Shown piece after piece: positions 30,501 to 59,800 of a stretch of 64,000 nt of DNA. Below the pieces are notes generated by a model. That model did no database searches and had not been told where the DNA came from. It saw nothing but the letters and a program-made list of their open reading frames with translations. Source of the DNA: Candidatus Latescibacterota bacterium (GTDB taxonomy: Bacteria; Latescibacterota; UBA2968; UBA8231); NCBI GenBank assembly GCA_965223905.1, contig CBDCXV010000011.1, positions 1,152,001 to 1,216,000 of the forward strand, written 5' to 3'. The translations under genes were made by a program, and so were the position numbers. Every line of letters starts with the position of its first letter. Position 1 is the first letter of the stretch.

Positions 30501-30939
30501 CTACCTCCGGCGACGACGTCGACAAACGCACCGTGCCGGGGGTGTCGGCCGGCCTCACCGACGACGTCACCGCGCTCTGCGCGCTCTTGTTCGGACCGTG
30601 GGCGTCGGTGTAGCCGACCGTCGCCCGCAGCTGCTTGCCCACATCCGCCGTCACCGGCGTGTAGCGGGACGTGGCCGCAATGGGGTAGCGCGCCGACCGC
30701 TCGATAGGCACCCACCCCGAACCCGCGTCGGCCCGCCGCTGCCACTGCCAGCTAGTGTCCGCCACGCTCCCGTCGACGTCCACCAGGGTGGCCGTCATCC
30801 GCTGACCCACCTCCGGCGACGCCGTCGACAAACGCACCGTGCCGGGGGTGTCGCCGTCGTCGTCAACCAGCCTCACCGTAGCGGTTGCGTGCGTGCCCGT
30901 GCTCACCCTCTCCGGCAGATCCCCGAATCCCAACGCCAC
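27511..30939 (-). pseudogene. 3' half of a giant surface protein gene (102-aa repeats, cadherin-like, Fn3, FlgD-Ig tail)
   Basis: Begins mid-domain (VALGFGDLP) at the TSD; ATDPEG/PDYE cadherin motifs, LTPNTAYEVQV Fn3, PNPFNPSTT tail. Confidence 0.85.
29655..30853. repeat. Four near-identical 306-bp coding tandem repeats
   Basis: GTGCCGGGGGTGTC recurs at 29921, 30227, 30533 and 30839. Confidence 0.95.
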
Positions 30940-31233
30940 GGGAATTATATAGATAACTACGCAAGCGCAACTTTAGTAATCTCATCCGCGAATTTAAAGA
31001 AAATCTGGTATAATATAATAGAGAAAATACCAGAGAGAAGGACATCCCGGTCCTCAAAGTGTTTAGCTCGGAGCACGGAAGCATGTCAGATTGACACCGT
31101 GCATTAAGCTACTGGGGTGAGGAATCATTCCGTTTGGTTGACAAGCGAGCAAGGAGGGTGACTGAGGATTTCTCGGTTGCAGGCTGCCGGGAGCAGGCAG
31201 CGGGTTTGTCATCTTGCTGGCTATTCGAAAAGA
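30940..31233. repeat. Left long terminal inverted repeat
   Basis: Imperfect inverted match to 56521-56810; homology continues through the transposase 3' remnant to ~31490. Confidence 0.9.
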
Positions 31234-31490
31234 CTCGCCCTTTCCTTCGACCGATGATGAGTGAAGGGAACCGGAGGGACCTCCGTCTCCAGAAGGTCCC
31301 GGTAGGTCAGCCGTTTCCCCACCATCCCGGAAGCAAGCAGTTCCATCTGTTCCAGGATATCCATTCCTCGGATATTGTACCTGCCTGCGCGAACTCGTTG
31401 AGGTATCGGGGAAAATACTTCGGAGATACGTGGCAATACCCGTGATAGGTTCCTTTCGCCAGAGCATTAAACGATTCCGCACGGTTCGTT
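31221..31490 (-). pseudogene. 3' remnant of the terminal IS1595 transposase
   Basis: TNRAESFNALAK...SPKYFPRYLNE and GRYNIRGMDILEQMELLASG match the 55371-56381 protein; frameshifted. Confidence 0.88.
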
Positions 31491-31968
31491 CCGGCGCCCC
31501 TGGGGACGCAGGTTCCGTTTTCGTGTTTCTCCATGCACTCACTGCACCTGTCTGGTTCTTCAGGGAGACCCAGCACCGACTCTTTTTCCCCAGGCGTTGT
31601 GGTGGGGCCATTGGGAGCAGTCTCGGCACCAGTGCCATACGTTGCTGCCTCATTTTCTTCGGTAAGTAGGCAATTTTTTTTCCTGATCGTTAAAAACACA
31701 AACGACGCTTGCACCGCTGTTGGGACGTCTCCGACGACCCCCCAACTGAGACGACGAGAACCTATAACCCTGAGCGCAAGATAGCTGGATAGCTCCATTG
31801 AGCACTCATCACATGCTCTCATTTTTTCCGCCGTCGCCGCCCGCAGGCGGGGCGTTGGAGAGAATAGGTTTTTTGCAGAGGCTGATAAATCAGTCCTCTA
31901 CATATTTTTAACCAAATTAGTGTGAGTTTCGTTACTTACCGGGTGGGTTTGAGTCCTAACTCAACGGC

Positions 31969-33354
31969 TTATCCCTCTTGTAGTTCGGAAACCTCAACCT
32001 TTATGGATTTTCCTGTAACCACTTCAATAGTAGTTTCGATTAAACTTGAGTTTCTCTTTGCTCTACTTTTATGCACTGCGTTTTCAGGAGTAAAATGAAG
32101 CGTCAGTGTGTGTCCATCAGAAGTCATGACACTGGTATTGCAAAGAGCATCGTACAGAGATTGTCGGGATTGCTTAAAAGTTTCTACGACCTTTATCCAG
32201 TTTTCCTCCGAAAGGACAGTATTATTGGTCCCCACTTTATCCTTTGTTATAATTGTCCTGGACCTCCGAACCGATTTCTTCCCCTCAAGATAACGAATAC
32301 AATCCTTAATCGACCTCGCATCGAATTCACCTCCAATTATGTGGCTATGGTTCCTTATAATTTCAGGTGCATCGGGAGAAGAGTTTTTATCGATGACAAC
32401 GATAGCGGGGATTTCACCAAGAGGGTCATTTAAATTATCACTAATACCTTCCTCCAAAATTTGATTAATCTGTTCATCTCTAAATGAGTATCCGACAAAT
32501 ATCAATTTGTCAGCCTCCGTTGATATGTCCTTGAGATCACCATAAAACGAGCCAAAGGGAAAGGGGACATCCTTTAATGATCGTCCTTTAAACCCCGGAT
32601 ACAGTATTGCCATGTCTGCTGGATCGAAAAGTCTCCCGATTAAATCACTGCACTGTATTTCCTCGCCAACACGCCTCCAATTCGTTGATCCATGTAGCTT
32701 TGTAAGACTGCCTTTCGTTCTTTCAGACCTAAATGATATCCGGCGCTCCATATTCAATACAGTTGTTCCCCCTGGCTTGGTCACCATCCCGTCTTCTATA
32801 GGAAATTTATTATGAATTATGGTTCCCTCAAACACCTTGTCATAGTTTGTAGTGAAGATATTCAGAGGAAGAGATCCTATTCCCAAAAGGTTTTTAATAA
32901 ACTCAGCCCAAAGATTGGTTTGATAAAATTCATCGCTATTATCCATCCCATATATTTCGTGAATTCTCTTCCATATCGAATTCCTTATATCCTTTAAGTC
33001 TGCTTCTGTCGATGCAGATTCATTCGGATTACAATACATCGTCTCATGATTAACGTCTTTCATCTTTGCACTCGTGGACATCATCCATCCTGGGAATTTT
33101 TGGGGATCTCTTATATCAGACAAGAGGTTTTCAAATTCTTGCATTTCCCATAGAACTTGCTCGATATCTACTATAACCTCCGTCCCTACGGTTCTATTTT
33201 TCCCCCGCAAAAACTCATATGCATTCTGAAACCAACGGGATCCCCAAATATCTGGTTCTTCTTCTTGGAGACGATGGAAAAACTCCACTGTAGTGGGAAA
33301 CTTCTCTTTATCCAAAGCATACGACCCTCCAGCGCCAACAAATAGCAAGATCAT
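31969..33354 (-). CDS. SIR2-like (SIR2_2) protein with a C-terminal DnaX-C-like domain
   Basis: LFVGAGGS, IFTTNYD, KLHGS.NW, IFVGYSFRDEQIN; AT-rich gene. Confidence 0.85.
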   Translation of the reverse strand: MILLFVGAGGSYALDKEKFPTTVEFFHRLQEEEPDIWGSRWFQNAYEFLRGKNRTVGTEVIVDIEQVLWEMQEFENLLSDIRDPQKFPGWMMSTSAKMKDVNHETMYCNPNESASTEADLKDIRNSIWKRIHEIYGMDNSDEFYQTNLWAEFIKNLLGIGSLPLNIFTTNYDKVFEGTIIHNKFPIEDGMVTKPGGTTVLNMERRISFRSERTKGSLTKLHGSTNWRRVGEEIQCSDLIGRLFDPADMAILYPGFKGRSLKDVPFPFGSFYGDLKDISTEADKLIFVGYSFRDEQINQILEEGISDNLNDPLGEIPAIVVIDKNSSPDAPEIIRNHSHIIGGEFDARSIKDCIRYLEGKKSVRRSRTIITKDKVGTNNTVLSEENWIKVVETFKQSRQSLYDALCNTSVMTSDGHTLTLHFTPENAVHKSRAKRNSSLIETTIEVVTGKSIKVEVSELQEG

Positions 33355-33409
33355 AGAATTAGTCCCTTTCGCTATCGTTCCTTCTTCACAGCTCCCCAGC
33401 TTGGCGGGA

Positions 33410-33850
33410 TCACTGTAGTCGTAATCTCCATTCCCGCAGTTGTTCCCCCGTAATTCTACCCGCTAAAAACAGTTCTACTTGCTCAGCGAATTCCCTGGGT
33501 ATGGAAAGGAGATCCCTCACAACTCTAAGGTTGAACTCGCCTGAACTTGCAGGGAATAAGAACCACGTAGAATATCCCCTGGATACCGGATATCCTGCGG
33601 TTTCATAAAACCATCGAATCCCCAAAGAAGGGACAATTGCGCCGTTATCATGCTCCCACCCCAGCGCAATGACGGCCCATCTTTCATCTATGCTCTTGTC
33701 CACAACTACGTAGGTACGACCCCCTACCCTTCTCTGAGGAGAATCGATTTCCAATATCTGGTTGTCGTTCCTTATCGGGAACCTTCTTCCGCCGTCTTGT
33801 CTTGCCATTTGGTTCTTTTCTCTATCTTGACAGAGTTCTGCTCCTGTCAT
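33410..33850 (-). CDS. Conserved-looking hypothetical protein
   Basis: SP...WAVIALGW...LGIRWF...GYPVSRGYSTWFLFP; translationally coupled to the upstream ORF. Confidence 0.65.
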   Translation of the reverse strand: MTGAELCQDREKNQMARQDGGRRFPIRNDNQILEIDSPQRRVGGRTYVVVDKSIDERWAVIALGWEHDNGAIVPSLGIRWFYETAGYPVSRGYSTWFLFPASSGEFNLRVVRDLLSIPREFAEQVELFLAGRITGEQLREWRLRLQ

Positions 33851-34071
33851 GGTCTCTGTTTCAGCCAGCCCCAGCTTGCCGAAGTCACGGCAGTCGGGAT
33901 TTCCGGAGTCTCTGTCTCTGGGAGCTCGGATATGATGTCATCCTTCACAACCGCCACTGCCCACCGGAAAGCGTCGTTATCTAATGTCGCAAAGTAGATC
34001 AACCCCGCTGGGTAATCCATTGATGGGTTGTAGTGAAAGACGGCGCGGAACACCGATGTAGCTGTTCCCAT
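33847..34071 (-). CDS. Small protein with C-terminal WGxxK motif
   Basis: Ends IPTAVTSASWGWLKQRP; follows a promoter and operator. Confidence 0.55.
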   Translation of the reverse strand: MGTATSVFRAVFHYNPSMDYPAGLIYFATLDNDAFRWAVAVVKDDIISELPETETPEIPTAVTSASWGWLKQRP

Positions 34072-34121
34072 TTCTACCGCCTTTTCCTAATCCAAATCCG
34101 TAAACGGACCTGATGATGACG

Positions 34122-34191
34122 TGTCGGTGTCCACCGACTGACTGCCCATCCGTTCACCGATTATGGTAGTATTTCTTTGCGCCGCTGTCAA
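34122..34191 (-). promoter_or_regulatory. Sigma70-type promoter with downstream palindromic operator
   Basis: Minus-strand TTGACA (34191-34186), 17-bp spacer, TACCAT (34168-34163); TGTCGGTGTCCACCGACT at 34122-34139. Confidence 0.7.
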
Positions 34192-34437
34192 TCCCCTCCG
34201 TATTCGCGCCGTTGCGCTCGACGCGTGTTGCGGCCAAGTCGTGGGAGCAGTGGCGGGCACGGTTTCCCGTCTTCAATCCTTCTTGCCGGCGAATCAGGCC
34301 GATCCTACCAGCTAAAGGATAGGCGCAACGTATTACACCTACCCCTTTGGTCGGCACCTACCGGCTACGCCAGTGGTTCAAAACAATCTGAATTGCCTCA
34401 AGCGTTAGCTCCAATACCACGGCCAACCATCTTGGCA

Positions 34438-34806
34438 TCATGATTTACCACCCCCTTTCTGTGGTGTGTCGTCGTCCCCGTTCTTTTTGAACCTCCCACG
34501 GTTGTCTCGATCCCGAGACCTTGCTGCTTCGCTCCTCTCGCGGTTCTGTTCTTCCTGTCGCCGAGCTTCTTCTGGGTTAACCCCGTTTTGGATATCCGAC
34601 CCGGTTTCCGTTTTCCCAAACTCCCGCTTCACCACATTCAACCGCTCTTTCACCTTCCCCTTGATCCACTCGGAATGAGCTTTGTTGACAGCAAGATGGA
34701 AGAGGCGGACCCCCACCTCCCTGGCAACGACCACGGCGACAGCCGTTACTACTGGCTTCCAGGGTATGCCACTGTCCTTCTTTCCGTTCCTGCGTAATGG
34801 TTCCAT
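34438..34806 (-). CDS. Hypothetical membrane-anchored protein
   Basis: RBS, one hydrophobic segment, RDNRGRFKK motif. Confidence 0.55.
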   Translation of the reverse strand: MEPLRRNGKKDSGIPWKPVVTAVAVVVAREVGVRLFHLAVNKAHSEWIKGKVKERLNVVKREFGKTETGSDIQNGVNPEEARRQEEQNRERSEAARSRDRDNRGRFKKNGDDDTPQKGGGKS

Positions 34807-34817
34807 GATGTTCCTTT

Positions 34818-35541: not shown

Positions 35542-35964
35542 CTATGCCTTTTCGGGTATCTGTGGCGGATTGTCGTCTGAATCGTCGGGTTTGATCTTCG
35601 GCTTGTCGTCTTTGTCTCCGAATAGCTCCTCCATCTTTTCGTCGGCTTGTATTCTGTGGATAAGCTTTATGCTTGCGGCAATGGTAAAGATTGCCCCGGC
35701 CAGCACTGCAAGATCGTCCTGGAAGCCTATGACGGGGAGGTAGTCGGGAATTAAGTCGAGGGGATTTATGAAATACGCGAGAGCCGCGAGCACCACTGCC
35801 TTAGCCTTGGCGGGTGTGTCTGGATCGGATAACACGTAATACAGGACAAGGGCTTTCGAGAGTAGATCCTTGGCGATTTTCTTAGCCAGCTTAGCAACGG
35901 CTTCGATCTTATCCCAAAAGGTTTCTTCCGAGTAGTTGGGATGTTCCATGACTAATCCCTCCAT
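35542..35964 (-). CDS. YkvA/DUF1232 family protein
   Basis: YSEETFWDK, ALAYFINPLDLIPDYLPVIGFQDD. Confidence 0.9.
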   Translation of the reverse strand: MEGLVMEHPNYSEETFWDKIEAVAKLAKKIAKDLLSKALVLYYVLSDPDTPAKAKAVVLAALAYFINPLDLIPDYLPVIGFQDDLAVLAGAIFTIAASIKLIHRIQADEKMEELFGDKDDKPKIKPDDSDDNPPQIPEKA

Positions 35965-36056: not shown

Positions 36057-37631
36057 GGGTGTCTTAGCTGATTGTTACGGTTTCGGTGGTTGTTTTTAGG
36101 TTTTCTCGGTACTGCTGAAAGACCCGGTCAAGCGTTCCATTGTACAAGGCGCAGCGCAGGGCCAGAATGGCGTTGCTGTTTTCCTTATACCACCAAGCGC
36201 CCGACCGTTTCAGACGAACGTGGCCGATGAAGCGATGCGCCGATTCGATCGCCCCCGACCCGATCGGGTATCCGCCCTTGCGATGGCTGCCGAAATCGAC
36301 CTGGTGCAGTCGCTTTTGCAGGTAGGTCAAGGCCGTGCCGATGGCCTCTCCGGCCTCTTCCGAGAGCGGCTGCATGCGCTGCAGACCCCAGACCACGCCG
36401 CTGCCCTCGCCGCAGAACAGGCGCGCCAGGGTCGCTTCCAGCCAATGGGCAGCACGCGCCGCATCGGCGCCGTATTGGGCCTCGGCCACCGCGTGCAGGT
36501 AGCTGCTGCAATGGTAGTAGTCGAGGATCTGACGGGCGCTCGGGAACAGCTCTTCCACCCACTTCCAGATCCACGGAGCGCCATCTCCGATGGCACACAA
36601 GCGCACCTGATCCTCCGGGATCAGCCCCGCCTCCTTGACCTGGCGCAAGGCCGCGCCGAAGGCCTGTTCGTTGCCCATCTGGTGCCAGGAGATCAGCTGC
36701 TCGATGCGCTCATCGTCTATCAGGTAGAAGCGAAAGCCCTTGGCTTCGTGGTATTCCCCCTGCCAACGCCTTCGCCGAGCCCGGCTCTTCTTGCGTCCGG
36801 GACGGGTGCCTTTGGCGGTCTGGGGACGACTGGGCACGTCGGCCGCGTCGATGGCCAACACCACGATCGGCCGCCACTTGCGACCGGCGGCGGCTTGCGC
36901 AATGCGATCCTGGATATCGGCCGCGTCCGGACACACCTGCAGCACGTCCAACGACCCGGTCTGTTGCAGCACCTCGTGAATCACACAATCGCTCATCGAC
37001 GCGTCGGTGAGCTCGTCCAACAGTTCGGCGGCGCGCCGGTGGGGCATCTCCAGCCCCAGCTTGACCCCGGCCTGCTGCACGTCCCACTGCTTGCGCTGCG
37101 CCGACAGGCCCAGGGCCTCGTCCAGCGGATAGAACCCGTGGTGACAGCCAACGCAGTAGAAATAGGGACGCTCCAAGGTCACCGGCCCGAGCAGCGTCTC
37201 CACCGTGCGCGAGCGAGACGGGCGCGCTCGCAGCAGGCCTTTGCACTTGGGGCAGGCCGCCTCTTCCTGGGCCAGGAAATGGCCGTGGCGGCGTTCGACG
37301 AAGGCTTCCACCAAGGCCGCGGTGAGCCCGGAGCGCTCTTGAGACATCGCCGCGGTGATCTCCATCAACGTCGGCGCACAAGATCCGCGCTCGCTCATTT
37401 GCGTCTCCACCCGATCCAGCCATTGGTCCAAGGCTTCATGCGCCCGGCTTCGAAAGCGGTCCTGACTCTGCCGCTCCTGAAAAACTTCCAGAGAGAGAAT
37501 CGCACTCATCGCTCCCCTTCTTTCTGAAATCAGGGGAGCGCGCCGCAGGGGATGCGGAAAAAGAAAGCAACTTACTGTAAAATATACACATACGCACCTG
37601 AATTGCGCTATAACAATTACTTAAGACGCCC
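36057..37631 (-). mobile_element. ISKra4-family IS (1,575 bp)
   Basis: Imperfect TIRs GGGTGTCTTAGCTGATTGTTA / GGGCGTCTTAAGTAATTGTTA; TSD AGAGGAAC at 36049-36056 and 37632-37639. Confidence 0.88.
36064..37509 (-). CDS. ISKra4-family transposase
   Basis: CPKC..TLLG...RPYFYC..C, AIDA, IGDGAPWI, LDYYH, PIGSGAIESA. Confidence 0.9.
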   Translation of the reverse strand: MSAILSLEVFQERQSQDRFRSRAHEALDQWLDRVETQMSERGSCAPTLMEITAAMSQERSGLTAALVEAFVERRHGHFLAQEEAACPKCKGLLRARPSRSRTVETLLGPVTLERPYFYCVGCHHGFYPLDEALGLSAQRKQWDVQQAGVKLGLEMPHRRAAELLDELTDASMSDCVIHEVLQQTGSLDVLQVCPDAADIQDRIAQAAAGRKWRPIVVLAIDAADVPSRPQTAKGTRPGRKKSRARRRRWQGEYHEAKGFRFYLIDDERIEQLISWHQMGNEQAFGAALRQVKEAGLIPEDQVRLCAIGDGAPWIWKWVEELFPSARQILDYYHCSSYLHAVAEAQYGADAARAAHWLEATLARLFCGEGSGVVWGLQRMQPLSEEAGEAIGTALTYLQKRLHQVDFGSHRKGGYPIGSGAIESAHRFIGHVRLKRSGAWWYKENSNAILALRCALYNGTLDRVFQQYRENLKTTTETVTIS

Positions 37632-37758
37632 AGAGGAACTGTCGCGGTTATTCCCCACCCTCCAGAAGCTAATCCTATAGCGGAGCCGATCTTAGCCCCC
37701 GCTACGGCTCCTGTCAGCAGTCCAGCTATGGTTCCGGCTGCTTCTTTTTTCCGTGGCA

Positions 37759-38802
37759 TTATTCCTGACCTCCTATGATAGCCTTGAGTTCTCCCCAGGA
37801 GGTCTGTTCGATGGAAGTGGGAATGTCGGGAGTATCGTATTCCCATAGTTTTATAAGACTGTCTGTTCCGGCACTGGCAAGGTATCGGGAAGACATAGCG
37901 AGGGCCGTTAGTTCGTTAAATAAATACCCCTCTCTCCCCTCGTGATGTTCCAGGGTTGCAGTAGGTTCCCAGGTGACGGTGCTGAGTATTTCGATTGCCC
38001 ACGATTCAGCTAACGAAACTGCAAGCAAATTGCTATCTGGAGAGAATGACATTTCTCCAACTGGCTTGTTGAAATACGAAGATATTCCCCAGGTATTAGT
38101 GTCCCACACTTTGAGCCTATTGTTGTTGGATATGCTGGCAAGTAACCGGCCATCGGGAGAAAATTCAAGATTAGTGACATCCCAATGGTCTGAGCCCAAC
38201 AGGGTGACGATTTTCTCTCCTGTTTCTGTATTCCATATGTATATAATGTCGTCTGTTGTCCCTGTTGCCAGCATGTTTCCGCCAGGATGGAATGCCAAGA
38301 AAGAGAAATACGGACCGAATTGGTCTCGGGATATTTCCAGCTTAGTGTCGAAGGTTTCTGGATCTACAAGGTATACAATTATATCATTTCCGATTGCAAT
38401 GGTTTCCCCGTCTGAGGATAGCGAAATCAGCAGAAATTCTCTGTTGGCGGAATAGGTTTCTTCTTCAAGGTTGATAATTATTGACCTACCGGAACGCAGG
38501 AAATCCGCCCGACTGTCTCCTCCAAAATCGTTTCCGATACGCCCACTGTTTATTAAGAACTTGCCATCGCGTGAGAACGTCATATGACGCCCACCGGTAA
38601 GGTTGAGCGGTTCTATCTCTTCCTCTCCGGATTCGATATTCCAAATCCTGATTTTCCCACCCCCGGTGCTTGCCAGACGGTTTCCATCTGGCGAAAACGC
38701 CAGTGAGTTTGTTGCGTATAACGATGGAGTATCTGGAATAAGAAATTCTTTATCGGAGGCAGATACTGCGGCAGCCAGCAGACACAGCAGTAGAAACGTC
38801 AT
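37759..38802 (-). CDS. Secreted WD40-repeat protein with C-terminal WGxxK motif
   Basis: Signal peptide, FSPDG..LAS...I(R/K)(I/L/V)W repeats, ends PTSIEQTSWGELKA. Confidence 0.88.
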   Translation of the reverse strand: MTFLLLCLLAAAVSASDKEFLIPDTPSLYATNSLAFSPDGNRLASTGGGKIRIWNIESGEEEIEPLNLTGGRHMTFSRDGKFLINSGRIGNDFGGDSRADFLRSGRSIIINLEEETYSANREFLLISLSSDGETIAIGNDIIVYLVDPETFDTKLEISRDQFGPYFSFLAFHPGGNMLATGTTDDIIYIWNTETGEKIVTLLGSDHWDVTNLEFSPDGRLLASISNNNRLKVWDTNTWGISSYFNKPVGEMSFSPDSNLLAVSLAESWAIEILSTVTWEPTATLEHHEGREGYLFNELTALAMSSRYLASAGTDSLIKLWEYDTPDIPTSIEQTSWGELKAIIGGQE

Positions 38803-39396
38803 TTGTCGATCCTCTTGCCGCTATGTCAGAGAAAGAGAGCCGTAGCCGCTACGCCAGAGAGGCCATCCGTAACGTCGAGAAACCCAGCCTGGAGCTTTCG
38901 CTATCCGGAAACGGCGACTACGGGAACTGCGCGTGGGCGGCAGTAGGGAATCTCTCTCCCCGAGCAAGGTGAAAGTAATCCCCGGCTCCCATTGGAGCCG
39001 GGTCCTTGCAACCTTGCCACGCAGAGAGCGGGAAGTCCCACCTATTTACCAAGTCTCAGGGAGCTACCCCTCGACTGGAAAAAACTGGCTGTTTTATTCA
39101 GCGGGAGACCCGACAAGCAGGACTCCACGCAGCAAGATTGCGAAGGAGATAGTAAACCTTCATTGATAACGACACAAGGGGAAATCGGTTACGGGTATGA
39201 GCGGTGAAAGATTACACCGAGAAGTGCCAAATGAAGTGCCAAATTTGCACGGCGAAGACGACCTTTGACCGGCAGCCCGGGAAGTTGGCACGACTCTTTC
39301 CGAAGCCCGTGGTATTCTCCGAAGGAAAATTCTGAAGAAAGCGGCGAGCAGCGCGGAAGCGGAGCCGGAGGGACTTCGCCCCCCGGCCTGACGTGG

Positions 39397-40890: not shown

Positions 40891-41679
40891 CTACTTGCCC
40901 GATCCTGCCTCCGGGTTGTCGGTGTTTTCCCGGGATACAGGCGCTGCTGTCGTCCTTGCCTCGCCCGATCCCGGATCTTCGCTGTTTACCGAAAAGGCGC
41001 TGTGGGAGTATATCTGCTGCTGATCGACTGAAGTTGTTTCCTTGGGAGTCCCCTTTTCCTCAAGCTGGCGTTTGAGCTGCTTGTTTTCCTGGAGCAGCTC
41101 GGCGATCCTTTCCTCGGCAACGCGCAGTTCATCCTCGGTCTTGCGCAGTTCGGCAACTTCTTCCTCGGCTTTGCTCAGTTTTTTCCCGGTCTCGCGCAGC
41201 TTGTCGCGGAGCTGCTGAATCTCCTGCGGGGACTCGATTTCGACGGGAAGCGACGGAGTGCCTTCGCCGTCAGTGACTTCCTCCTGCTGCACGGATGAGG
41301 CTTTCCCTTCAGCCACATCGGGTTCGACCTCCCTGGCCGGCTCCTTGCGTTTCGAACGGGCAGGTTGCCAGGCCTTCAAAGCCTGATCCACCGAGTTAAA
41401 TTTCCCAATTTGGGATATTTCATCATACTGCTCTGAGAGCTTCATCCATCGATGGGCCGTGCTCGTGGGGATGCCGGCGGACTTCAGCCATTCCCCCCAC
41501 TTTCCATGCGGCAGCTCTTTTTTGACCTCGCACAACGCCCGGCCGCATTCCCAGACTTCCTTAATGGTGTTCCTGAAAAATCGATTGGCAGATTTCCAAT
41601 GCTCGATTGCCCGACTCTGAGCATCGCTCAGGTCGGAGTTTTCTGCTTTCGTCTCCATTTTTCCCGATTCCTGTTCCAT
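40891..41679 (-). CDS. DUF3102-domain protein with coiled coil
   Basis: GRALCEVKKELPHGKWGEWL...TAHRWMKL. Confidence 0.8.
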   Translation of the reverse strand: MEQESGKMETKAENSDLSDAQSRAIEHWKSANRFFRNTIKEVWECGRALCEVKKELPHGKWGEWLKSAGIPTSTAHRWMKLSEQYDEISQIGKFNSVDQALKAWQPARSKRKEPAREVEPDVAEGKASSVQQEEVTDGEGTPSLPVEIESPQEIQQLRDKLRETGKKLSKAEEEVAELRKTEDELRVAEERIAELLQENKQLKRQLEEKGTPKETTSVDQQQIYSHSAFSVNSEDPGSGEARTTAAPVSRENTDNPEAGSGK

Positions 41680-42586: not shown

Positions 42587-43027
42587 TCAGACAATCCCGA
42601 GCTCCTTCATGGACACGCTTCCGCCAGGAGGGGCAACGATTACATGATCCATAACGTCGATTCCTACGAGATGCCCCGCATCGCGCAAGCGGTGCGTCAG
42701 ACTGATATCCTCTTTCGACGGCGCAGGATCGCCGGAGGGGTGATTGTGGGCCAGCACGATGCCATCGGCACCCTTGAGAATCGCGGCCTTGAACACTTCC
42801 CGAGGGTGCACGAGGGACGCAGTCTGACTGCCGATGGAGGTGATTTCGTGGGCGATGACGCGGTTCCGGGTGTCGAGGTGGAGGACAACGAAAACCTCCC
42901 TGTCCGAATTCCGGAAATCATCCAAGCTGTCCAGGTAAGTAATAACGTCGCCGGGGCCGACAAGGGCCTCGCTGCACACGTCTTGCCATATCTGCTTCAC
43001 GGTTCGTTCTACGACTTCGAGTTTCAT
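42587..43027 (-). CDS. RadC-like JAB-domain protein (JAB domain only)
   Basis: REVF..LHLD, VHPREVFK, AHNHPSGDPAPSKED, MDHVIV. Confidence 0.93.
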   Translation of the reverse strand: MKLEVVERTVKQIWQDVCSEALVGPGDVITYLDSLDDFRNSDREVFVVLHLDTRNRVIAHEITSIGSQTASLVHPREVFKAAILKGADGIVLAHNHPSGDPAPSKEDISLTHRLRDAGHLVGIDVMDHVIVAPPGGSVSMKELGIV

Positions 43028-43059
43028 ACGAGGGTCCTTTCTTGAAAGGAAAGAGGAAA

Positions 43060-43677
43060 ATGACAAACCTCCTGCAACCGGATGAGGCATTGGCCGTCAT
43101 CATCGGAGACGCGCCGCTGACCCGGACGGAGGTAGTCAAGAAACTGTGGGGTTATATCAGGGAGAACGGATTACAGGACGCGAAGAATCCGCACTATATC
43201 AATGCCGACGACAATCTCAGGAAGGTGTTTGGCGGCAAGGAGCAGGTGACCCTGTTGGAGTTGACCAGGCTGGTCAACAAACACCTGTTCGTCGGCGCTG
43301 AAGGCGAAGCGGTAACGGACGAGGAGCTTGAGAGGGAGTTCGAGGAACAGGTGCTGGCGGGGTCTTACGAGACGCTGGGATGCTCGCCGGAGATCTCCGA
43401 CGCGGAACTGAAACAGAAATACCGGGAATTATCTCGGGAATATCACCCGGACAGGCTGGTAGGCGAGGAGATTCCCGCAAGTATCGTCAAGCTCGCGAAG
43501 GAACGGAACACGAGCTCGCGAACTTCCCCTCCGTGCTTCTGGCGGTGTGCGGTGGCTTCCGGAAGGGTTTCGAACCGGTCAACCTTGCCTTCCTTCACTA
43601 CTACCCAGCGACGGATAACCCATCGGGGTAGGTCTACTTCGTCGGGCATTTTTTGTCCTCACTCTTTTCGACGATAA
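43060..43677 (+). CDS. SWIB/MDM2 domain fused to a truncated DnaJ J-domain
   Basis: RTEVVKKLWGYIRENGLQD...INADDNL (SWIB); YETLG...YRELSREYHPD (J-domain); the sequence after ~43505 is unrelated. Confidence 0.75.
   Translation: MTNLLQPDEALAVIIGDAPLTRTEVVKKLWGYIRENGLQDAKNPHYINADDNLRKVFGGKEQVTLLELTRLVNKHLFVGAEGEAVTDEELEREFEEQVLAGSYETLGCSPEISDAELKQKYRELSREYHPDRLVGEEIPASIVKLAKERNTSSRTSPPCFWRCAVASGRVSNRSTLPSFTTTQRRITHRGRSTSSGIFCPHSFRR
43443..43649 (-). CDS. Small hypothetical protein, copy 1
   Basis: MPDEVDLPRWVIRRWVVVK, duplicated at 44171-44389 with the protein conserved. Confidence 0.6.
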   Translation of the reverse strand: MPDEVDLPRWVIRRWVVVKEGKVDRFETLPEATAHRQKHGGEVRELVFRSFASLTILAGISSPTSLSG

Positions 43678-44170: not shown

Positions 44171-44389
44171 CTAATCCCCGTCAGCCCTGATCCAGCCCTT
44201 GTTAGGCTGGTAGTTCTGAGGAATCGTTTTGACGCTTGACAAACGAAACTCCAACTCGCGTACTTCGCCGCCGCACTCCTGCTTGTGCGCGGTGGCCTCT
44301 GGCAGGGTCTCGAAGCGGTGCACCTTGCCGTCTTTCACTACAACCCAGCGACGGATTACCCAGCGGGGTAGGTCTACTTCGTCGGGCAT
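44171..44389 (-). CDS. Small hypothetical protein, copy 2
   Basis: Paralog of 43443-43649; coupled to the upstream SWIB gene. Confidence 0.6.
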   Translation of the reverse strand: MPDEVDLPRWVIRRWVVVKDGKVHRFETLPEATAHKQECGGEVRELEFRLSSVKTIPQNYQPNKGWIRADGD

Positions 44390-47805: not shown

Positions 47806-47987
47806 GATACTGGGTCAGCGAAACTACCCCTTTTCTGGTATAATCCTTTTTTGAACACACCATACTACAGGGATCCGAATACCGGACCGTACACTTCGGA
47901 GGTAATCCGATTAAGGCTTTCTTTGCCTTCTGAGGATCGGTGAATCTGTTCGAATGGAACTATGAGACATCTGAAAGGAACAAGAGG

Positions 47988-49002: not shown

Positions 49003-49413
49003 GTAAGTTGTATATAAAGCGAACAAGTCCTATTCCCAGAACATATCGCAGCCAGTGTTTCTTGAGACGGCTTCGATTTCTTTCGTTCTTTCCATTAGAT
49101 AGTGGCAGAGGGAACCGAAAGGCGGGTCTTGACGAATCGGCAAAATGCCAGGAGTTCTCTTTCCGGCTCAAGGGACTACGCTCGTGGGGCATAGTTCAAC
49201 AGACGGACAAGAGGCTTCAGCCAATTGCCTGCCAATCTACTCGATCCCCCCTGCCAAAAACTGTCCGTCATCGTCGGATGTTCTCTTTTCCTCTTCGGGG
49301 TCTTCCTTCTCGCTGCACGGGATGCATATGTGCTCGTCGGGGGTGGGCATATAGAACAGGTGATATGGCCTGATTTCCTGGCCGCATACGCAGCAGACCG
49401 TCTTGAAAACCAT

Positions 49414-49863
49414 TTACTGCCTCGTGTCCCGGATTCTGCCCTCCTCGTCCACGAAGATCCGGAATGGCGAGGCCACCATTCTACGACAGGACTTGGTAAG
49501 GGCATGCACGCACTCGATGCAGATATCGAACTTCCTCCAATCCGTCATGCTGGCCGTTCCGACCTTGAGCTGCCCCCGCAAGTCGTCTTCGGAGGCGACC
49601 CCGTTGCAGATATCACAGATTGTGGTTCCCATTTTCGTTCTCCTTTCTCGGTGGATTTGATGCTTTGTAGGACAGGCGTAAGCCATTTTCCTGGTGATGG
49701 ATGATCGCCCCATGAGGCAGAGATACCTTTCCGGCATCGTTCGCTTCCCCTTCTCCCACAGGCACACTTCGGCTTCACTGACACCAAGGGCGATGCCCAG
49801 CTCCCACTGCTTCATGCCCAAGGCGTCTCTCGCCCTTTTCAGCTGATCTTGCGTCATCTTCAT
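49414..49863 (-). pseudogene. XRE HTH regulator, frameshifted into the downstream CxxC ORF
   Basis: Identical to the 51813 protein until LMG, then a one-base deletion (ATGGGGCGATC vs ATGGGGGCGATC). Confidence 0.75.
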
Positions 49864-49885
49864 TCTCCATTTCGAGGGGGTGATT

Positions 49886-49976
49886 TGTCGGTGGTCACCG
49901 ACAGAAGGACACAGAACGGCCCTGAACCGGCCTGACGGGGCCGGGTGTTGACAGGTATTCGGGTTCCCGTTAGAAT
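49886..49976 (+). promoter_or_regulatory. Palindromic operator plus consensus sigma70 promoter
   Basis: TGTCGGTGGTCACCGACA 49886-49903; TTGACA 49948-49953, 17-bp spacer, TAGAAT 49971-49976. Confidence 0.75.
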
Positions 49977-50081
49977 CGAAAACTGAGGTTCGAACGGTAG
50001 CGGATTCAGCGAGCGGGTCGCGGGAACTGCCTCTGCTTCACTTCATTGCAATGAGCATGGACCCGAGGGAGCGGAAGACCC

Positions 50082-50904: not shown

Positions 50905-51445
50905 GGGCTCCTTTTTAGTGATTTTTCGGGGCACGATACCTTCAAAACAGGCAGTTAGGGAGAACCACCTATGTCCAGCCCTCTTTCTGCTGGCCCGAGT
51001 TGTCCTTTGTGCAACGGGTACCTTTGTCCGCCAGAAGAAATTTCAGAAGAGTTGAAGAGGTTGAGCTTTGACCGAAACCTACCTGCTTCCGTGCGGGCTA
51101 CTCGCATTGTAAATATCGCCGCTCGGCATGGTGGAAGCTGGTGGTGTGCGGCAGTCCTGGGATATTCGACAGTGCTGAGGAGGCCAAAAGCGATGCACTG
51201 GAAAAACTGGCTGCTTTATCCTGCCAGATCGAACAACCAGTTGCGCACGCGCTTCATTGGGTACTGGAGAGCTTCGGGGAGCGGTGAGTGGCAGAGGGAA
51301 CCGAAAGGCGGGTCTTGACGAATCGGCAAAATGCAGGAGTGCTCTTTCCGGCTCAAGGGACTACGCTCGTGGGGCACAGTTCAACAGACGGACAAGAGAC
51401 TTCAGCCAATTGCCTGCCAACCTACTCGATTCCTCCTGCCACAAA

Positions 51446-51598
51446 CTATCCGTCATCGTCGGCAGTTCTCTTTTCTTTTTCGGGATCTTCCTTCTCGCTG
51501 CAGGGGATGCATATGTGCTCGCCGGGGGTGGGCATATAGAACAGGTGATATGGCCTGATTTCCTGACCGCATACACAGCAGACCGGCTTGAATACCAT
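51446..51598 (-). CDS. Small zinc-ribbon-like protein
   Basis: CCVC...CIPC; second copy starts at 49413. Confidence 0.5.
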   Translation of the reverse strand: MVFKPVCCVCGQEIRPYHLFYMPTPGEHICIPCSEKEDPEKEKRTADDDG

Positions 51599-51600
51599 TT

Positions 51601-51813
51601 TTACGACCCAGCTTTGTAGGACAGGCGTAAACCATTTTCCTGGTGATGGATGATCGCCCCCATGAGACAGAGATACCTTTCCGGCATCGTTCGCTTCCCC
51701 TTCTCCCACAGGCACACTTCGGCCTCACTGACTCCAAGGGCGATGCCCAGCTCCCACTGCTTCATGCCCAAGGCGTCTCTCGCCCTTTTCAGCTGGTCTT
51801 GCTTCATCTTCAT
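51601..51813 (-). CDS. XRE-family HTH regulator (intact copy)
   Basis: LKRARDALGMKQWELGIALGVSEAEVCLWEKGKR; GGAG RBS. Confidence 0.88.
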   Translation of the reverse strand: MKMKQDQLKRARDALGMKQWELGIALGVSEAEVCLWEKGKRTMPERYLCLMGAIIHHQENGLRLSYKAGS

Positions 51814-51834
51814 TCTCCATTATTCGGGGTTGTT

Positions 51835-51926
51835 TGTCGGTGACCACCGACAGAAGGACACAGAACCGGCCCTGAGACAGCCTGACGGGGCCGGGTGTTG
51901 ACAGGGTATTCGTGTTCCGGTAGGAT
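51835..51926 (+). promoter_or_regulatory. Palindromic operator plus sigma70 promoter
   Basis: TGTCGGTGACCACCGACA 51835-51852; TTGACA 51898-51903, 17-bp spacer, TAGGAT 51921-51926. Confidence 0.75.
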
Positions 51927-52257
51927 CAGGACTGGAGGGTGGAAATACCGTTGCAGAATTCAGCGAGCCGGTAAGGGCAACTGCGTTGACTCGCTAACTT
52001 GCCGTTTTCTGCAAGAAGGGTCGGTATGGACTCAGCGTGAGATTAGGGAAACGGAGAACGACAGAAGGAAAGCCGGGTCCCGGGTCGCCTCTGTCCGGAG
52101 GTGCTGGCGGAGTTGGATACCGTGATTCGGATGCAGTCTTTCGGATTCCTGAAGCGCGCCGAGCAGGTCCTGCAGTGAGGGAAATAAACGTCTTTCTCTA
52201 TTATGTTATACCAGATTTTCAGCGAAATCGCGCTTTTGAATCGGTATTCTACCGCTC

Positions 52258-54751: not shown

Positions 54752-55161
54752 AGACTTATGGTTCATTTACGATTCTCGGTTTTGTTCTCCCTTTTTGTAC
54801 AGTGATGGTAATTCCCTGACACTCCTCCCCTGCTCCGGGGTAGTTGTTCAGGCCGCGCAGCGTGGTCATGCCGTTCATGTTGCGGCCTGATGAGGTGGTT
54901 GCCCCAGGCGGTATCCTCCTCGGCGAAGCCCTTCCCACCACCGAGGAACAGCGCAACCAGGTCGTATCCCTCCAGCGATATCCTCGACCCGCAATTTCCT
55001 GAACCTCCCAGATACACCGGTCCTGACCGACCCCCCAGCGACAGCTTGCAGACCCAGGGGATCATACGGAGCCTCGTTCCCGCATCCGCTCCTCTCTCGC
55101 TTCCAGAAATTAAAGTTTTCTCCGTCACTACCGGATTCCTTCGACTAAAGTTTCCCCCGAT

Positions 55162-55262
55162 TTGCTTTTTTAGAAAATCCGGGTACACTAATGATAAATC
55201 GAAAAGGAATCCGTCAGGATCCGCTGCCGCTTCTCTGTCCCTTCTGTCGGTGCACGCCGACA
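55162..55262 (+). promoter_or_regulatory. Possible transposase promoter and palindromic operator
   Basis: TTGCTT, 16-bp spacer, TACACT (55162-55189); TGTCGGTGCACGCCGACA at 55245-55262. Confidence 0.55.
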
Positions 55263-55370
55263 GGTCACTTTCCCACTAACCGAAAGGAATCCTATGGGAG
55301 CGTGAATCACAATATTTTATGAGGGCCGCTGGTCTCAAGTTCGGTATTCCACGGCTCGAAGGTAATCAGA

Positions 55371-56381
55371 ATGAATAACGGTATCGATAATGGCATCGAA
55401 TTAACCCTAAAATTTCCAGACAATGCAACCGCAGAAGAATGGCTCGAAAAGGTCATATGGAGACGAGGCTTGCACTGTCCTCGCTGCGGGTGCTACGGCA
55501 TGATATCGGAGTGTCCGGACCGAAAACCCCAGAAGTATTGGTGCGGCGACTGTCGAAAACACTTCAGCGTTCGCACCGAAACCGTAATGTCCCACTCCAA
55601 GATCCCTTTGGAGAAATGGGCCACCGCCTTCTACTTGCACGTATCCGATCCGAAGGGAATCAACGCCATGCAGCTGAGCCGCAAACTCAAACTCAATTAT
55701 CGGTCGGCGTGGTTCATGCTGCATCGCATCCGGGAAGGATGGTCGGATCAGGAACCGCTGCGCAGCAGGATAGCCGAGATAGACGAAGCCTATTTCGGCG
55801 GAGACGATAAAAAGAAACACCGCAACAAGAAGTTCCACAAGCAATGGAGGTATGGTAATACCGCCGTGGCCGGAATGGTTGACCGGGAAACCGGGAACGT
55901 GGCCGCCAAAGTGATCCTCACTTCGGATCGCGAGACCTTGTTCCCCTTCGCAGAGGAACACCTATGTCCAGAGGGCACCCTAAACAGCGACAATGGCCCG
56001 GCTTATGGTGGCGGCTTCGGGTGGCCGGGAAGACACGAAACCGTCAACCACAAGAATGAATTCGTCAGAGGGGATGTCCATACGAACAGCATTGAATCGT
56101 TCTGGGCTCTGGCGAAACGAATCTATCGCGGGATCTATCACCACATATCTCCCAAGTATTTTCCCCGATACCTCAACGAGATGGCAGGGAGGTACAATAC
56201 CAGAGGAATGGATATCCTGGAACAGATGGAACTGCTTGCTTCCGGGATTGTGGGGAAACGGCTGACGTACCGGGATCTGGTGGACACGGAGGTCCCTCCG
56301 GTTCCCTTCACTCATCATCGATGGAAGGAGGGCGAACCCTTCCGAAAAGTCAGCAAGGTGAAAAACCCCGGTGAAATCTAA
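55371..56381 (+). CDS. IS1595-family transposase (terminal copy)
   Basis: CPRCG, YWCGDC, EIDEAYFGG, LNSDNG, HTNSIESFW, YFPRYLNE. Confidence 0.93.
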   Translation: MNNGIDNGIELTLKFPDNATAEEWLEKVIWRRGLHCPRCGCYGMISECPDRKPQKYWCGDCRKHFSVRTETVMSHSKIPLEKWATAFYLHVSDPKGINAMQLSRKLKLNYRSAWFMLHRIREGWSDQEPLRSRIAEIDEAYFGGDDKKKHRNKKFHKQWRYGNTAVAGMVDRETGNVAAKVILTSDRETLFPFAEEHLCPEGTLNSDNGPAYGGGFGWPGRHETVNHKNEFVRGDVHTNSIESFWALAKRIYRGIYHHISPKYFPRYLNEMAGRYNTRGMDILEQMELLASGIVGKRLTYRDLVDTEVPPVPFTHHRWKEGEPFRKVSKVKNPGEI

Positions 56382-56520
56382 GACCGCAACAGAGGCCATA
56401 CTTCGGTTTCCTGCTCGTCCCGGATGCAGGGATGCTCTCCGGGTCCATGAAGACCTTCTCGCTGGGTACCCCGTCTTGCGCATCGGGGGTCGAACTGAGT
56501 CTGTCGATGGAGCGGCAAAA

Positions 56521-56810
56521 TCTTTTCGAATAGTCAGCAAGATGACAACCGCTGCCTGCTCCCGTCAACCTGCAATCGAGGAATCAGCTTTCCCTCCTTG
56601 CTCGCTTGTCAACCAAACGGAATGATTCCTCACCCCGGCGGCTTAACCCGTGGTGTCAATCTGACATTCTTCCATGTTCGGGGCTAAACACTTTGAGGAC
56701 CTGGATGTCCTTCTCTCTGGTATTTTCTCTACTATATTATACCAGATTTTCTTTAAATTCGCGGATGAGATTACTAAAGTTGTGCTTGCGTAGTTATCTA
56801 TATAATTCCC
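56521..56810. repeat. Right long terminal inverted repeat
   Basis: Inverted match to 30940-31233. Confidence 0.9.
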
Positions 56811-59800
56811 AACGCCACCGACTCGTCGACCCGGTCGGCATCCTGAGTCGCCGTGATCGAAAACGACTGAGAGGTCGTGCTGCCCGAAAACGACAGCGTG
56901 TCTTCCACCCCCGGCCACGTCGCCGTGTAGTCGCCCGACTCAGGAGCTCTCGTGATCGGGATCTTCACCAACCGCTCCGCCGCCGCCGACAGCGACACCG
57001 TCACCGCCACCGACTCGCCCCCTTCGACGGCCTCATACGACGAGCGGCCGAACGTGACCGTCAGCCGCCGGGGTGCAACCAACTCGGCGTACTCCCTGGC
57101 CGCCACCTTGCCGGACCCGTGCGCGTCCGCGTAGTAGACGCGGGCGCTCAGCAACAACCCGGCGTCCCCTGACACCGGCCGGTAGGTCGTGTCCGACGCC
57201 ACGCGCTGGTGAGCGCGGCCGCCGGGGCCCGGCTGCCGCGTCTGGCCACTGCCAGACCGCGCCGGTCACACCCCCGTCCGGGTCTCTCAGCTGCGCCCTC
57301 AGCTGATGACCGACCTGGGGCGACGTCGGCGGCGCCAGGGAGACCACGCCCGGATCGTCCTCGTTGGTGATGCGAACGGACACGCCCAACGTCGTATCCG
57401 CTGCCGGCGGCCCGGCGGTGCGGGCCCCCACGATCACGCTCCAGACGGTGTCCCCGTCAGCGTCCTTCGGGTGTTCGTAGTCCGGTTCCTTCGTGAAGCG
57501 CAATTCGCCGTCATCCTCGTCAATGGCCAGCGTGTCGCCGGCATCGGCCCCCGACAGCGTCCAACTCACCCCCGTGGCCGCCGTGCCGTCCGTGTACCGG
57601 GCCACGTAGGGTGCCACCAGGCCCGTGGCTCGCTCCGCGAACGTCGTGTCGGCCGCGCCCAGAATCTCCAGCCGCCGGACAGGAGGCGGGGGAGCTGTCG
57701 CAACGACCGGATGCGTTTCACCGCTCTGCGCGCTCTTGCGGTCCTCCTCGTCGGCGCTTGCCCCGTCCAGGTAGGAGGCGGTCACCCGCAGCCGCTTCCC
57801 CACATCGTCCTCCGTCGGCGTGTAATAGACATATCCCGGATAGGTGGAGGGAGGCGTCCGCGTTTCCTCATCCGTGGTGGTGGGCTCCCAGCCCGACGAG
57901 CCCAGACGCTGCCACTGCTGCGAACGCACGTCCACGTTCCCGTCCGGGTCGGTGAGCGTCCCCCTCACCCGCACGTCCACCTGGGGCGTCCCCGTGAGAA
58001 ACTCGATCCGGCCGGGCCCCTCGTCCACGTTGGTCACCGTCACCTGAACGGTCAGCGGATTCGACAACAGCGATCCGTCGCTCGTGCGCAGGCTGACCTC
58101 GTAGACGTCGTTGCGGTCCGCGTCGGCGGTGCCCTCGAAATCGGGGAAGTCCGGCCTGTCGGCGAAATACAGCGTGTCGCCGCTGATCCGGAAATGAGCC
58201 GCATCCGGGCCTTCTTTCTGCAACCTGAGCACGTCGTCCGGATTCGGGTCGGTCAGCCGGTAGGTGGCCACCGAGTCCTCCCGGTCCTCGGCGAACAACA
58301 CCGCGGTGGGACCGTCCGGAGGGTCCGGCGGCGAGTTGGTCGCCGGCTCCACCAGGGTCACCGCAGCGCCGGCCGGGGAGCCGGCGGTCACCTGCCAGGG
58401 CAGCGAACCGAACCCCAGCCTCACCCTCCCGTCGTCGCCGTCGCCGTCCGGTTTCGCCGTGATCGTGAACGTCCGCGCGGCGTCGCCGTTCGAGAAGGTC
58501 AGGGTGTTGCCGCTGCCCAGCCCGCCCAGGCTGTAGTCGTCCGACTCGGTGCCGGCTTCCCCGGTCGCCTCGATCGGAATGCCCAGCTGCCGGTCCGCGG
58601 CCGGTTCCATGCGCACCGTCACCGTCGCCGCAGCGCCCCCCTCGGCCGCCTGGTACGACTCGGCGCCGAAGAAGACCTGCGCATGAATCACCCGGGCGGT
58701 GGAATCGCTCTGCGCGCGCTTGTCCGGGCCGAGGGCATCCGCATAGCCGACCGTCGCCCGCAGCCGCTTGCCCGCATCCCCTGGTTGCGGCGTATAGCTG
58801 GTCAGCCCCGGATAGCGCCCCGCCGGCAGGGGGGGCTCCCACGCGTCCGTATCCCGGTCCCGGTGCTGCCAATGCCACCCGTCCACCCGGATGCCCCTAT
58901 CCTGATCGGTGAGCACCGCGGTCAGCGGCGTGCCCACCCGCGGCGACGACGAGATCAGGGTCACCTCGCCGGGATCGTCCACGTTGGTCACCCGCACCGA
59001 CACCGGCAAGGCCGCATCCGCCGCCGGCTGACCGTCGGCGTTGGCCTCCACCGTCACCTCGTAGACCGTGTCTCGGTTGGCGTCGGCCGGATTCTCGTAG
59101 TCCGGCGGCTCCTCGAAGCGGAGCCGGCCCGCATCGTCGATCGTCAGGGTGTCGGCATCGGCCCCCCCGAGGGACCAGGACACCGGCGCGACCGCCTGCC
59201 CGTCCGCGGAGAGCGCCCGGTACGGGGCCACGACGCCCTCCCTCCTCTCGGCGAAGGTGGTATCCTGGGTGCCCACAATCACCAGGGCGCCGGTCGGGCG
59301 CTCGGCCAGGGTCAGGGTGGCGCGCGACGGCGTGCCCGCGCTCACCCCGGCCGGCAACGGCGTCCCGAACCCCAGACTCACCGTCTCGTCGTCTGAATCG
59401 GGATCCGCGTTCGCCTGAATCGCAAACGACTGCGCCGTGGCCCCCGACTCGAACCACAGCGTGTCGGCCACCCCCGGCCACGTCACCGTGTAGTCGCCTT
59501 CCTCGGTCTCCGAATCCGGGGTCACCGAAATCGGGATCTTCAGCGCCCGGTCCGTCTCCGGCGATACCGATACCGTCACCGATGCGGTGCCCCCTTCCCT
59601 CGCCGAATACGATTCCCTGTCGAACGAGACCGTCAGGTCCGCCGGCTCCGGGGATTCTGCCACCGGGCCGATGGCCGCGCTCGCGGCGCTCTTGTCCGGG
59701 CCGTGCCCGTCCGTGTAGCGCACCGTCGCCTGAAGATACTGCCCTGCATCGGCCGACACCGGCGTATACGCCGCCGCCGTGGCCCCCGAAACCGGCGTCC

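Follow-up and report, generated by a model that had tools for sequence, protein, structure and literature searches.

In 2009 Siguier, Gagnevin and Chandler reportedly defined the transporter insertion sequence (IS), and in ISfinder the upper size for the IS1595 family is near 8 kb. Here we analyse a 64,000-nt stretch of a Candidatus Latescibacterota genome (assembly GCA_965223905.1, contig CBDCXV010000011.1, positions 1,152,001 to 1,216,000; hereafter the window), in which a 25,871-bp element, at 30940-56810, interrupts a surface-protein gene. We consider it likely that this element is one IS1595-family unit of compound-like build, with inverted arms from the same transposase-distal end, which moves only as a whole and is driven by its terminal transposase.

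As described in the sections of PMC8101967 that treat the IS1595 family, its members make 8-bp target duplications and have a single transposase gene whose product contains a zinc finger and a DDE domain, the zinc-ribbon domain occurring in all groups except IS1016. Transporter ISs, which carry passenger genes, were defined on this family, according to the relevant passages of PMC3129680 and PMC8101967 (citing Siguier, Gagnevin and Chandler, 2009). Judged by those passages, the element in the window is like a transporter IS in its zinc-ribbon and DDE transposase, its termini starting with GG, its 8-bp duplication and the enclosure of its passengers within one pair of ends. It is unlike one in size (25.9 kb, and 24.9-48.5 kb in its relatives, versus a few kb), and in having three transposase genes or remnants rather than one, long arms formed by inverted duplication and a conserved internal module. 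Two smaller elements of the same genome, of 4.6 and 7.0 kb, fit the same description directly.

Compound units are also on record for this family: in the excerpts that deal with them, Tn7560 (ISApl4) is a 5,765 bp IS1595-family compound transposon with directly oriented ISs and no flanking duplication (PMC12561309), and the ISEc69/mcr-2 unit is a further IS1595-family compound unit (PMC7835479). The elements described here are 4-8 times larger than these examples as given there, and their cargo includes a module conserved in the five regions compared in one sister genome. As in the compound transposons Tn5 and Tn10, two inverted arms, apparently IS-derived, bound the cargo, the outermost ends would be used and one duplication surrounds the whole; unlike in those transposons, there are no detectable inner ends, both outer ends are the same IS end and one arm is cut to ~560 bp. 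Since no inner ends are detectable, the arms are not independent ISs. Defence-carrying Tn7-like and Tn3-family transposons are likewise tens of kb long, with defence cargo, terminal inverted repeats and a target duplication, but the present element has no TnsABC-type, resolvase or target-selector genes, and its transposase is of a family whose other known members are small ISs. We found no description of large IS1595 elements in the literature on IS1595 passengers, composites, transporter ISs, defence systems and sponge symbionts.

A 25.9 kb block inserted in a surface-protein gene

The whole unit is flanked by one perfect 8-bp duplication, AACGCCAC, and has a G+C content of 51.4%, compared with 68.2% and 66.5% in its flanks. 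The coordinates of this and the other features are listed in Table 1. When positions 30940-56818 (the block and one 8-mer) were deleted in silico, a segment of 1,291 codons was open across the joint on the minus strand, the remaining two frames being open for 60 and 65 codons. The product of the interrupted gene is a surface protein with fn3, cadherin and Ig-like repeats according to Pfam.

Contigs of four public sequencing runs were compared with window 30600-34600. In run X4 a 744-nt contig (depth 26.7) covers 30824-30939, with 3 of 116 letters differing, and its first 30 letters beyond 30939 are those of window 56819-56848, just past the right 8-mer. As it joins 30939 directly to 56819-56848, this contig represents the empty site with a single 8-mer. 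Contigs of the same run leave 31538-34083 uncovered, an observation that, for contigs, cannot prove absence. The interior of the element is present in runs X1 and X3 (31340-34170, for example, is found in X1 with zero differences); among the matches listed for the four runs, no contig bridges a junction of the inserted form, and the X1 flank contig ends exactly at 30939. In a sister genome, G002, two homologous repeat regions (only 67-80% identity) have the left and right flanks joined, with an overlap of exactly 8 nt. We conclude that 25.9 kb entered the surface-protein gene as one block via an 8-bp staggered cut.

An earlier note on this DNA had claimed a perfect 8-bp duplication, a target gene that is in frame and terminal inverted repeats of ~290 bp, and had named an empty site as a check. 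The duplication and the reading frame were as it described, the repeats are perfect for 23 nt and extend to ~315 bp, and the uninterrupted site is carried by the X4 contig.

The target gene is repetitive beside the insertion, where four tandem 306-bp repeats of 94-95% identity lie at 29632-30849, and weaker copies are found on the other side at 57234-59911. A 2,291-aa open reading frame (ORF) at 57033-63908 (minus strand) overlaps the interrupted ORF in another frame at 57033-57265; either a frameshift has split a single very large gene for a repeat protein, or two genes lie side by side.

One IS end at both termini, and no inner ends found

The 23-mer GGGAATTATATAGATAACTACGC forms both termini, perfect and inverted, at 30940-30962 (plus strand) and 56788-56810 (minus strand). 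From there the inverted repeat runs for 219 nt at 93% identity or, by blastn, for 315 nt at 88.6%; in the right arm it is followed by an insertion of ~130-170 nt and then by 279 nt more at 86%, over the 3′ end of the transposase gene. With this extended homology, the two termini represent one IS end, the transposase-distal one. Across 21 aligned ends, conservation spans the first ~115 nt, which include an inward-reading TGGTATAAT-like motif; read by eye, this motif is promoter-like and resembles an extended -10 element. Weaker copies of the motif lie at 52193-52232 and ~55160-55195, and a sigma-70 scan gave 3 sites in the right 1.85 kb versus 1.4 expected. Rfam at gathering thresholds gave 0 matches in the window and ARAGORN 0 tRNAs; the long ends contain no known RNA.

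Within the window no further match to GGGAATTATATAGATAACTACGC was found at up to 3 mismatches (zero expected from 100 shuffles), and a genome-wide scan at up to 5 of 23 mismatches gave no extra copy within the element. Local alignment of the terminal 100 nt with the regions beside both transposases scored 17-19 versus shuffle means of 17.0-18.1, and a de novo inverted-repeat search around the internal transposase returned nothing convincing. The earlier note had likewise seen no inner IS ends by either transposase. In G001a and G001b, two large relatives with arms of ~2.1-2.2 kb, only the outer termini were recovered when up to 7 of 26 mismatches were allowed; the interior of G001c holds two further terminus-like matches, both oriented as its left end. 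Ends of the type seen in the 7.0-kb element were found in none of the large elements (up to 8 of 28 mismatches). As there are no usable inner ends, the element would move only as a whole. Its passengers and transposase lie between a single pair of terminal repeats, the two outer termini, as in a transporter IS; the definition of a compound transposon, which requires both flanking ISs to be intact with two ends apiece, does not describe it (terminus scans, local alignment).

Two candidate inner ends were rejected. The first, considered as a decayed end, was the region ~55091-55195 ahead of the right transposase, where similarity to the 8.2-kb and 4.6-kb copies begins at 55091 and 55197 and one of the weak motif copies lies; its alignment to the terminus (score 19) lies within the shuffle range (mean 18.1, maximum 26), and we therefore claim no inner end there. 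A weak terminus match 220-245 bp downstream of the internal transposase (39162-39178) was not above chance.

Elements of the same build in sister genomes

The end sequence is present in four of the 41 genomes searched, namely the genome holding the window (G000), two sister genomes of the same genus (G001 and G002) and, as one weak match, G010. Large relatives of 24.9-48.5 kb number five, all with perfect 8-bp duplications (Table 1), and the flanks of all five abut in G000, with an 8-bp overlap in four cases and one of ~6 bp, extrapolated from alignment ends, in G001c. Their sites are thus empty in G000, because the flanks match adjacent positions there. We conclude that elements of the same build are inserted at other sites in the sister genomes and that the large elements form a genus-level set of 25-48 kb. 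The earlier note had proposed a search for other large elements with such ends, and these five supply them. Counting the smaller elements, perfect 8-bp duplications were seen in seven further related elements.

The arms differ in completeness. G001a-c have two inverted arms of ~2.1-2.4 kb, each with an outward-reading transposase; the window's element has one full arm and one truncated arm of ~560 bp (matching over 315 + 279 bp); and G002a has a 189-bp repeat only, with no transposase at its right end. G002a has in common with the window's element only the helix-turn-helix (HTH) block and the SIR2 gene. In G002 there are also four ends that match the window's termini without difference over 30 nt. 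Two of these, at C1:3233153 (plus) and 958103 (minus), have the same 8-bp flank, ATGCAATC, although 2.27 Mb separates them; a rearrangement may have followed, as if a large inversion had split one element.

The cargo of the three relatives scanned is varied and mostly of defence type. G001a encodes a type I restriction-modification (R-M) system (HsdR, HsdM, HsdS, YgjP-like), a DNA methylase, three large WD40 proteins and a 960-aa ORC/CDC6-like protein with a kinase domain; G001b encodes DndB, DndC-like, DndD-like and DndE proteins, a cysteine desulfurase, GmrSD, PLD-helicase and NYN-CSD proteins and ankyrin repeats; G002a encodes SIR2 and an amidohydrolase.

Smaller relatives are found in G000 itself. 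The 4,574-bp element has a transposase at one end and passenger DNA beyond, and the 6,999-bp element, whose terminus is different but similar, carries a transposase of the internal type (56% identity) together with HTH and SWIB-DnaJ-like genes; the third is of 8,207 bp. Transporter-IS forms of the lineage therefore coexist with the large one. G000 also has, at C10:1708297, a single unpaired end with the G002a type of terminus; it lies beside ~4-8 kb of low-GC DNA with no transposase match and may be a non-autonomous or truncated relative.

Table 1. Features of the window and related elements. Positions are those of the window unless a genome (G000, G001 or G002) is named.
Feature	Position	Strand	Evidence or details
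Target gene, downstream part	27511-30939	-	fn3, cadherin, Big_9, FlgD_ig (Pfam)
Target-site duplication, left copy	30932-30939		AACGCCAC
Left terminal inverted repeat	30940-31254	+	First 23 nt perfect
Inward TGGTATAAT-like motif, left end	31006-31014
Left-arm remnant of second terminal IS1595 transposase	31242-31489	-	tblastn
SIR2-like defence-type protein (cargo)	31969-33354	-	PF13289 7.3e-11; PADLOC SIR2 8e-18
122-aa ORF	34438-34806	-	44-49% identity in G001a-e
DUF1232 protein (cargo)	35542-35964	-	Pfam
Nested ISKra4-family IS	36057-37632	-	7-bp duplication GAGGAAC; transposase 36064-37509
WD40-repeat protein (cargo)	37759-38802	-	Pfam
Internal (mid) IS1595 transposase, intact, 360 aa	39397-40479	-	Pfam, NCBIfam
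DUF3102 protein	40891-41679	-	Pfam
RadC-like JAB protein (central module)	42587-43090	-	PF04002 5.8e-40; 73-79% identity in G001a-e
SWIB-DnaJ fusion protein (central module)	43042-43677	+	Pfam, NCBIfam, homologues in relatives
SWIB-domain protein (central module)	44389-44814	-	Pfam, homologues in relatives
Regulatory block, copy 1	49101-49994		Xre-type HTH at 5′ end of ORF 49414-49863 (-); divergent ORF 49225-49704 (+)
Regulatory block, copy 2	51287-51944		70-aa HTH 51601-51813 (-); ORF 51257-51619 (+)
Right terminal IS1595 transposase, intact, 336 aa, reads outward	55371-56381	+	Pfam, NCBIfam
Right terminal inverted repeat	56496-56810	-	Last 23 nt perfect
Target-site duplication, right copy	56811-56818		AACGCCAC
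Target gene, upstream part	56819-57202	-	ORF 56798-57202; frame continuity after excision
IS701/IS4-like IS ends	5911-5932/7037-7057 and 10496-10519/11873-11896
4,574-bp element	G000 C11:1961238-1965811		86-bp terminal repeats; duplication ATCGAGGC
8,207-bp element	G000 C2		38-bp repeats; no duplication
6,999-bp element	G000 C10		Perfect 45-bp repeats; duplication GTCGTAGT
G001a, 34,446 bp	G001 C3:1304677-1339122		Duplication GAACGAGG
G001b, 44,915 bp	G001 C3:1941107-1986021		Duplication CTCGTAGC
G001c, 48,545 bp	G001 C3:4234635-4283179		Duplication CGACGCGA
G001d, 40,424 bp	G001 C3:6017644-6058067		Duplication ACCAGAAC
G002a, 24,863 bp	G002 C1:2741459-2766321		Duplication GGTCGATC

The terminal transposase as the probable driver

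The element contains two intact IS1595 transposases and a remnant, besides the transposase of a nested ISKra4-family IS, as had been proposed; they are matched by PF12762, NF033547, tblastn and NF033572. The PF12762 matches to the right terminal and internal (hereafter mid) proteins (2.1e-30 and 1.4e-32) each span positions 7-153 of 153, and the NF033547 matches are at 6.8e-48 and 1e-45, the two proteins being 54-55% identical. The left-arm remnant comprises ~83 residues, corresponding to ~238-320 of the right-hand protein, in two frames with a frameshift near 31388, and in Pfam it matches PF12762 positions 110-149 only. Residues D138, D207, E242 and K249 and both CxxC pairs are invariant in all ten terminal and internal transposases aligned. 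The zinc-ribbon model PF12760 scored below the Pfam cut-off (20.1 and 22.5 versus 25.4 bits), yet both Cys pairs are invariant in the alignment. The element therefore shows the DDE_Tnp_IS1595 domain, N-terminal zinc ribbon and 8-bp duplication that mark the family; at 25,871 bp, with two intact IS1595 transposases and a remnant, it departs from the small element with a single transposase gene. The termini may also be compatible with the end consensus published for the ISNwi1 group of the family. The nested ISKra4-family IS (transposase match NF033572, 4.2e-74) has 13 other copies in the genome at 99.7% identity or more.

Family scans covered ORFs of at least 70 aa; 39 ORFs internal to the element were scanned with Pfam (41 given in all), 35 with NCBIfam and 32 each with PADLOC and PHROGs. 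Among the scanned ORFs none belonged to an integrase, relaxase, resolvase, Tn7-type (TnsABC) or phage structural or virion family in these four collections, in agreement with the earlier note, which had found no integrase, relaxase, Tn3/Tn7 or phage structural genes.

Which of the two intact enzymes moves the element was assessed from the way each varies with the termini. Identity of the terminal transposases to that of the left arm of G001a (G001a_L) falls with terminus type, from 75-81% for the same type to 65% for the window's, 55-58% for G001d/e and 50-53% for G002a. The mid transposase does not track terminus type: G001e has ends of a third type (type B), and its mid protein is 93.6% identical to that of G001a. 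Since the terminal enzyme varies together with the ends, it is indicated as their partner. In the mechanism that we favour, the right terminal transposase, through its zinc ribbon and DDE domain, would bind the identical outer termini and catalyse the move, and the truncated left arm would now act as an end only. The ancestor may have been a pair of ISs, or a transporter IS, whose inner ends were later lost. The genes of the central module (HTH regulators, SWIB, SWIB-DnaJ, RadC and the mid transposase) would regulate or assist the element, and the remaining genes, such as SIR2 here, would be exchangeable cargo, mostly of anti-phage defence type.

Several observations weigh against this reading. 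By the Nei-Gojobori method, the terminal transposases are under relaxed constraint (ratio of non-synonymous to synonymous substitution, dN/dS, of 0.41-0.55) and the mid transposases under tight constraint (0.08-0.16), a contrast to be expected if the internal enzyme were the more important. The 8.2-kb relative in G000 has no duplication, and in G001e, where the left end is present, the right end was not found in the stretch examined. Between G001c and G001d, over 20 kb of interior match at 84-97% identity but the arms are only 70-74% alike, and recombination between elements, beside transposition, therefore shapes them. A two-hexamer sigma-70 scan found 0 sites at the left end, where the promoter idea rests on the extended -10 motif read by eye. 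Finally, the mobility of this copy is deduced from its sequence.

The difference in constraint could mean that the mid transposase is the working enzyme of the large elements and that the terminal genes are decaying passengers of the arms. It would accord with this that each of the seven mid-type genes of G001 is open, with 69-85% identity to that of the window, that terminal genes are truncated in the window's left arm and missing from the right arm of G002a, that no ends of its own were recognisable around the mid gene (local alignment, inverted-repeat and C10-type end searches) and that the termini of the stand-alone 7.0-kb mid-type relative resemble the outer termini in outline. Against it stands the co-variation with terminus type, which the terminal but not the mid transposase displays. 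Moreover, no close relative of the mid gene is present in G002a (best 45-50%), an element whose duplication is nevertheless perfect and whose site is empty in G000, and at least one open terminal transposase is present in each of six elements, the window's and the five relatives with both ends. We regard the mid transposase as an improbable driver and retain the terminal enzyme in that role.

Among distant relatives, mid-type transposases were found at 80 loci in other taxa, none above 53% identity; no homologue of 10 central-module and cargo proteins lay within 10 kb of any of them, in a search that may omit records near the window's genome. G001 has two more intact transposases of the mid type (84% identity), at C3:953042 and 1024434, beyond the five regions examined, which are four complete elements and G001e; these two may mark further large elements.

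Growth in place and misassembly

It might also be supposed that a small IS inserted and made the duplication, and that the 25.9 kb then grew in place by nested insertions and recombination, the large unit never having moved. Nested insertion does occur, since the ISKra4-family IS lies inside with a 7-bp duplication of its own; the interiors of G001c and G001d have recombined; and small relatives of 4.6-8.2 kb exist. However, a single small IS would not yield two termini that are both the same transposase-distal end with extended homology. Further, five other elements of 25-48 kb with like ends are found at as many different sites, all of them empty in G000; of these elements, three have two arms and the four from G001 have the central module in common; and the sole alternative allele seen at the present site, that of the X4 contig, is fully empty. 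Growth in place is accordingly very unlikely, and movement of the element as one unit is the better account.

That the low-GC block was mis-joined at repeated IS ends is hardly credible, for although the termini are repeated in the genome, the X1 short-read contig stops at 30939 and no junction-bridging contig is among the matches listed, a mis-join would not give an exact 8-bp duplication, restore the frame and agree exactly with an independent empty-site contig, and the same structure recurs in two other assemblies, of one and three contigs.

The central module, cargo and neighbouring features

A central module is common to the window's element and the five G001 regions (a-e). It consists of an HTH gene, one or two small ORFs, SWIB, SWIB-DnaJ and RadC genes, the mid transposase and the 122-aa ORF, and is compact in G001a (~4.3 kb). 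The counterpart of the 122-aa ORF adjoins the internal transposase in the G001 elements; in the window this ORF matched no family in Pfam, NCBIfam, PADLOC, PHROGs or the ESM Atlas. Best ESM Atlas scores for it and for ORF 49225-49704 were 0.76 and 0.85, with no family for either. Copy 1 of the regulatory block was delineated by direct repeats (D4, D5, D15, D17, D18 and D20), with the HTH recognised by Pfam, PHROGs and NCBIfam, and has homologues in all six related regions compared. About half of the element's ORFs had no match at all. Homologues of the SIR2-like protein are encoded by the 8.2-kb element on C2 and by G002a. An intergenic direct repeat of 88 nt (94% identity) was also noted in the element, at 45933-46020 and 47844-47931.

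Elsewhere in the window, at 5911-11896, two IS701/IS4-like IS copies (DDE_5, DDE_Tnp_1) with ~22-nt inverted ends enclose 3.4 kb of low-GC DNA that encodes a PD40 protein and an HTH protein ~85-90% identical to that of the large element. This pair may be a second, unrelated compound unit.

Discussion

The earlier note interpreted the locus as an inverted composite that had lost its inner ends. The two-armed relatives make this a reasonable reading, and it would be a history reconstructed from present-day structures. The note also credited the element with a regulon of its own, a tentative reading that draws on the conserved promoter-like end motif and its weaker copies. To speak of an undescribed class of genomic island was an overstatement, since the parts are those of a transporter IS or a compound transposon, and the element is best filed as a new, large variant of these two kinds, not as a new class.

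In the parts of the sources cited above, the IS1595 family otherwise comprises small ISs and compound units no larger than ~6 kb; in the present elements its enzymes appear to move 25-48 kb, with clean duplications and empty sites. This widens the range of sizes that a simple DDE transposase of IS type can carry. The relatives carry complete type I R-M and Dnd phosphorothioation systems, GmrSD and SIR2, and such elements therefore offer a route by which whole defence systems could spread inside one genome and perhaps from one relative to another.

The conserved module, with its strongly constrained third transposase, poses a testable question, that of how such large units are controlled. One speculative answer, to which we give limited credence, is that this obligately large (25-48 kb) IS1595 lineage consists of mobile defence islands that need an internal control module, and that the end-less, strongly constrained mid transposase of that module was recruited as a second subunit or a regulator of transposition. 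If so, a family known only from ISs with one gene would include a system with two transposases.

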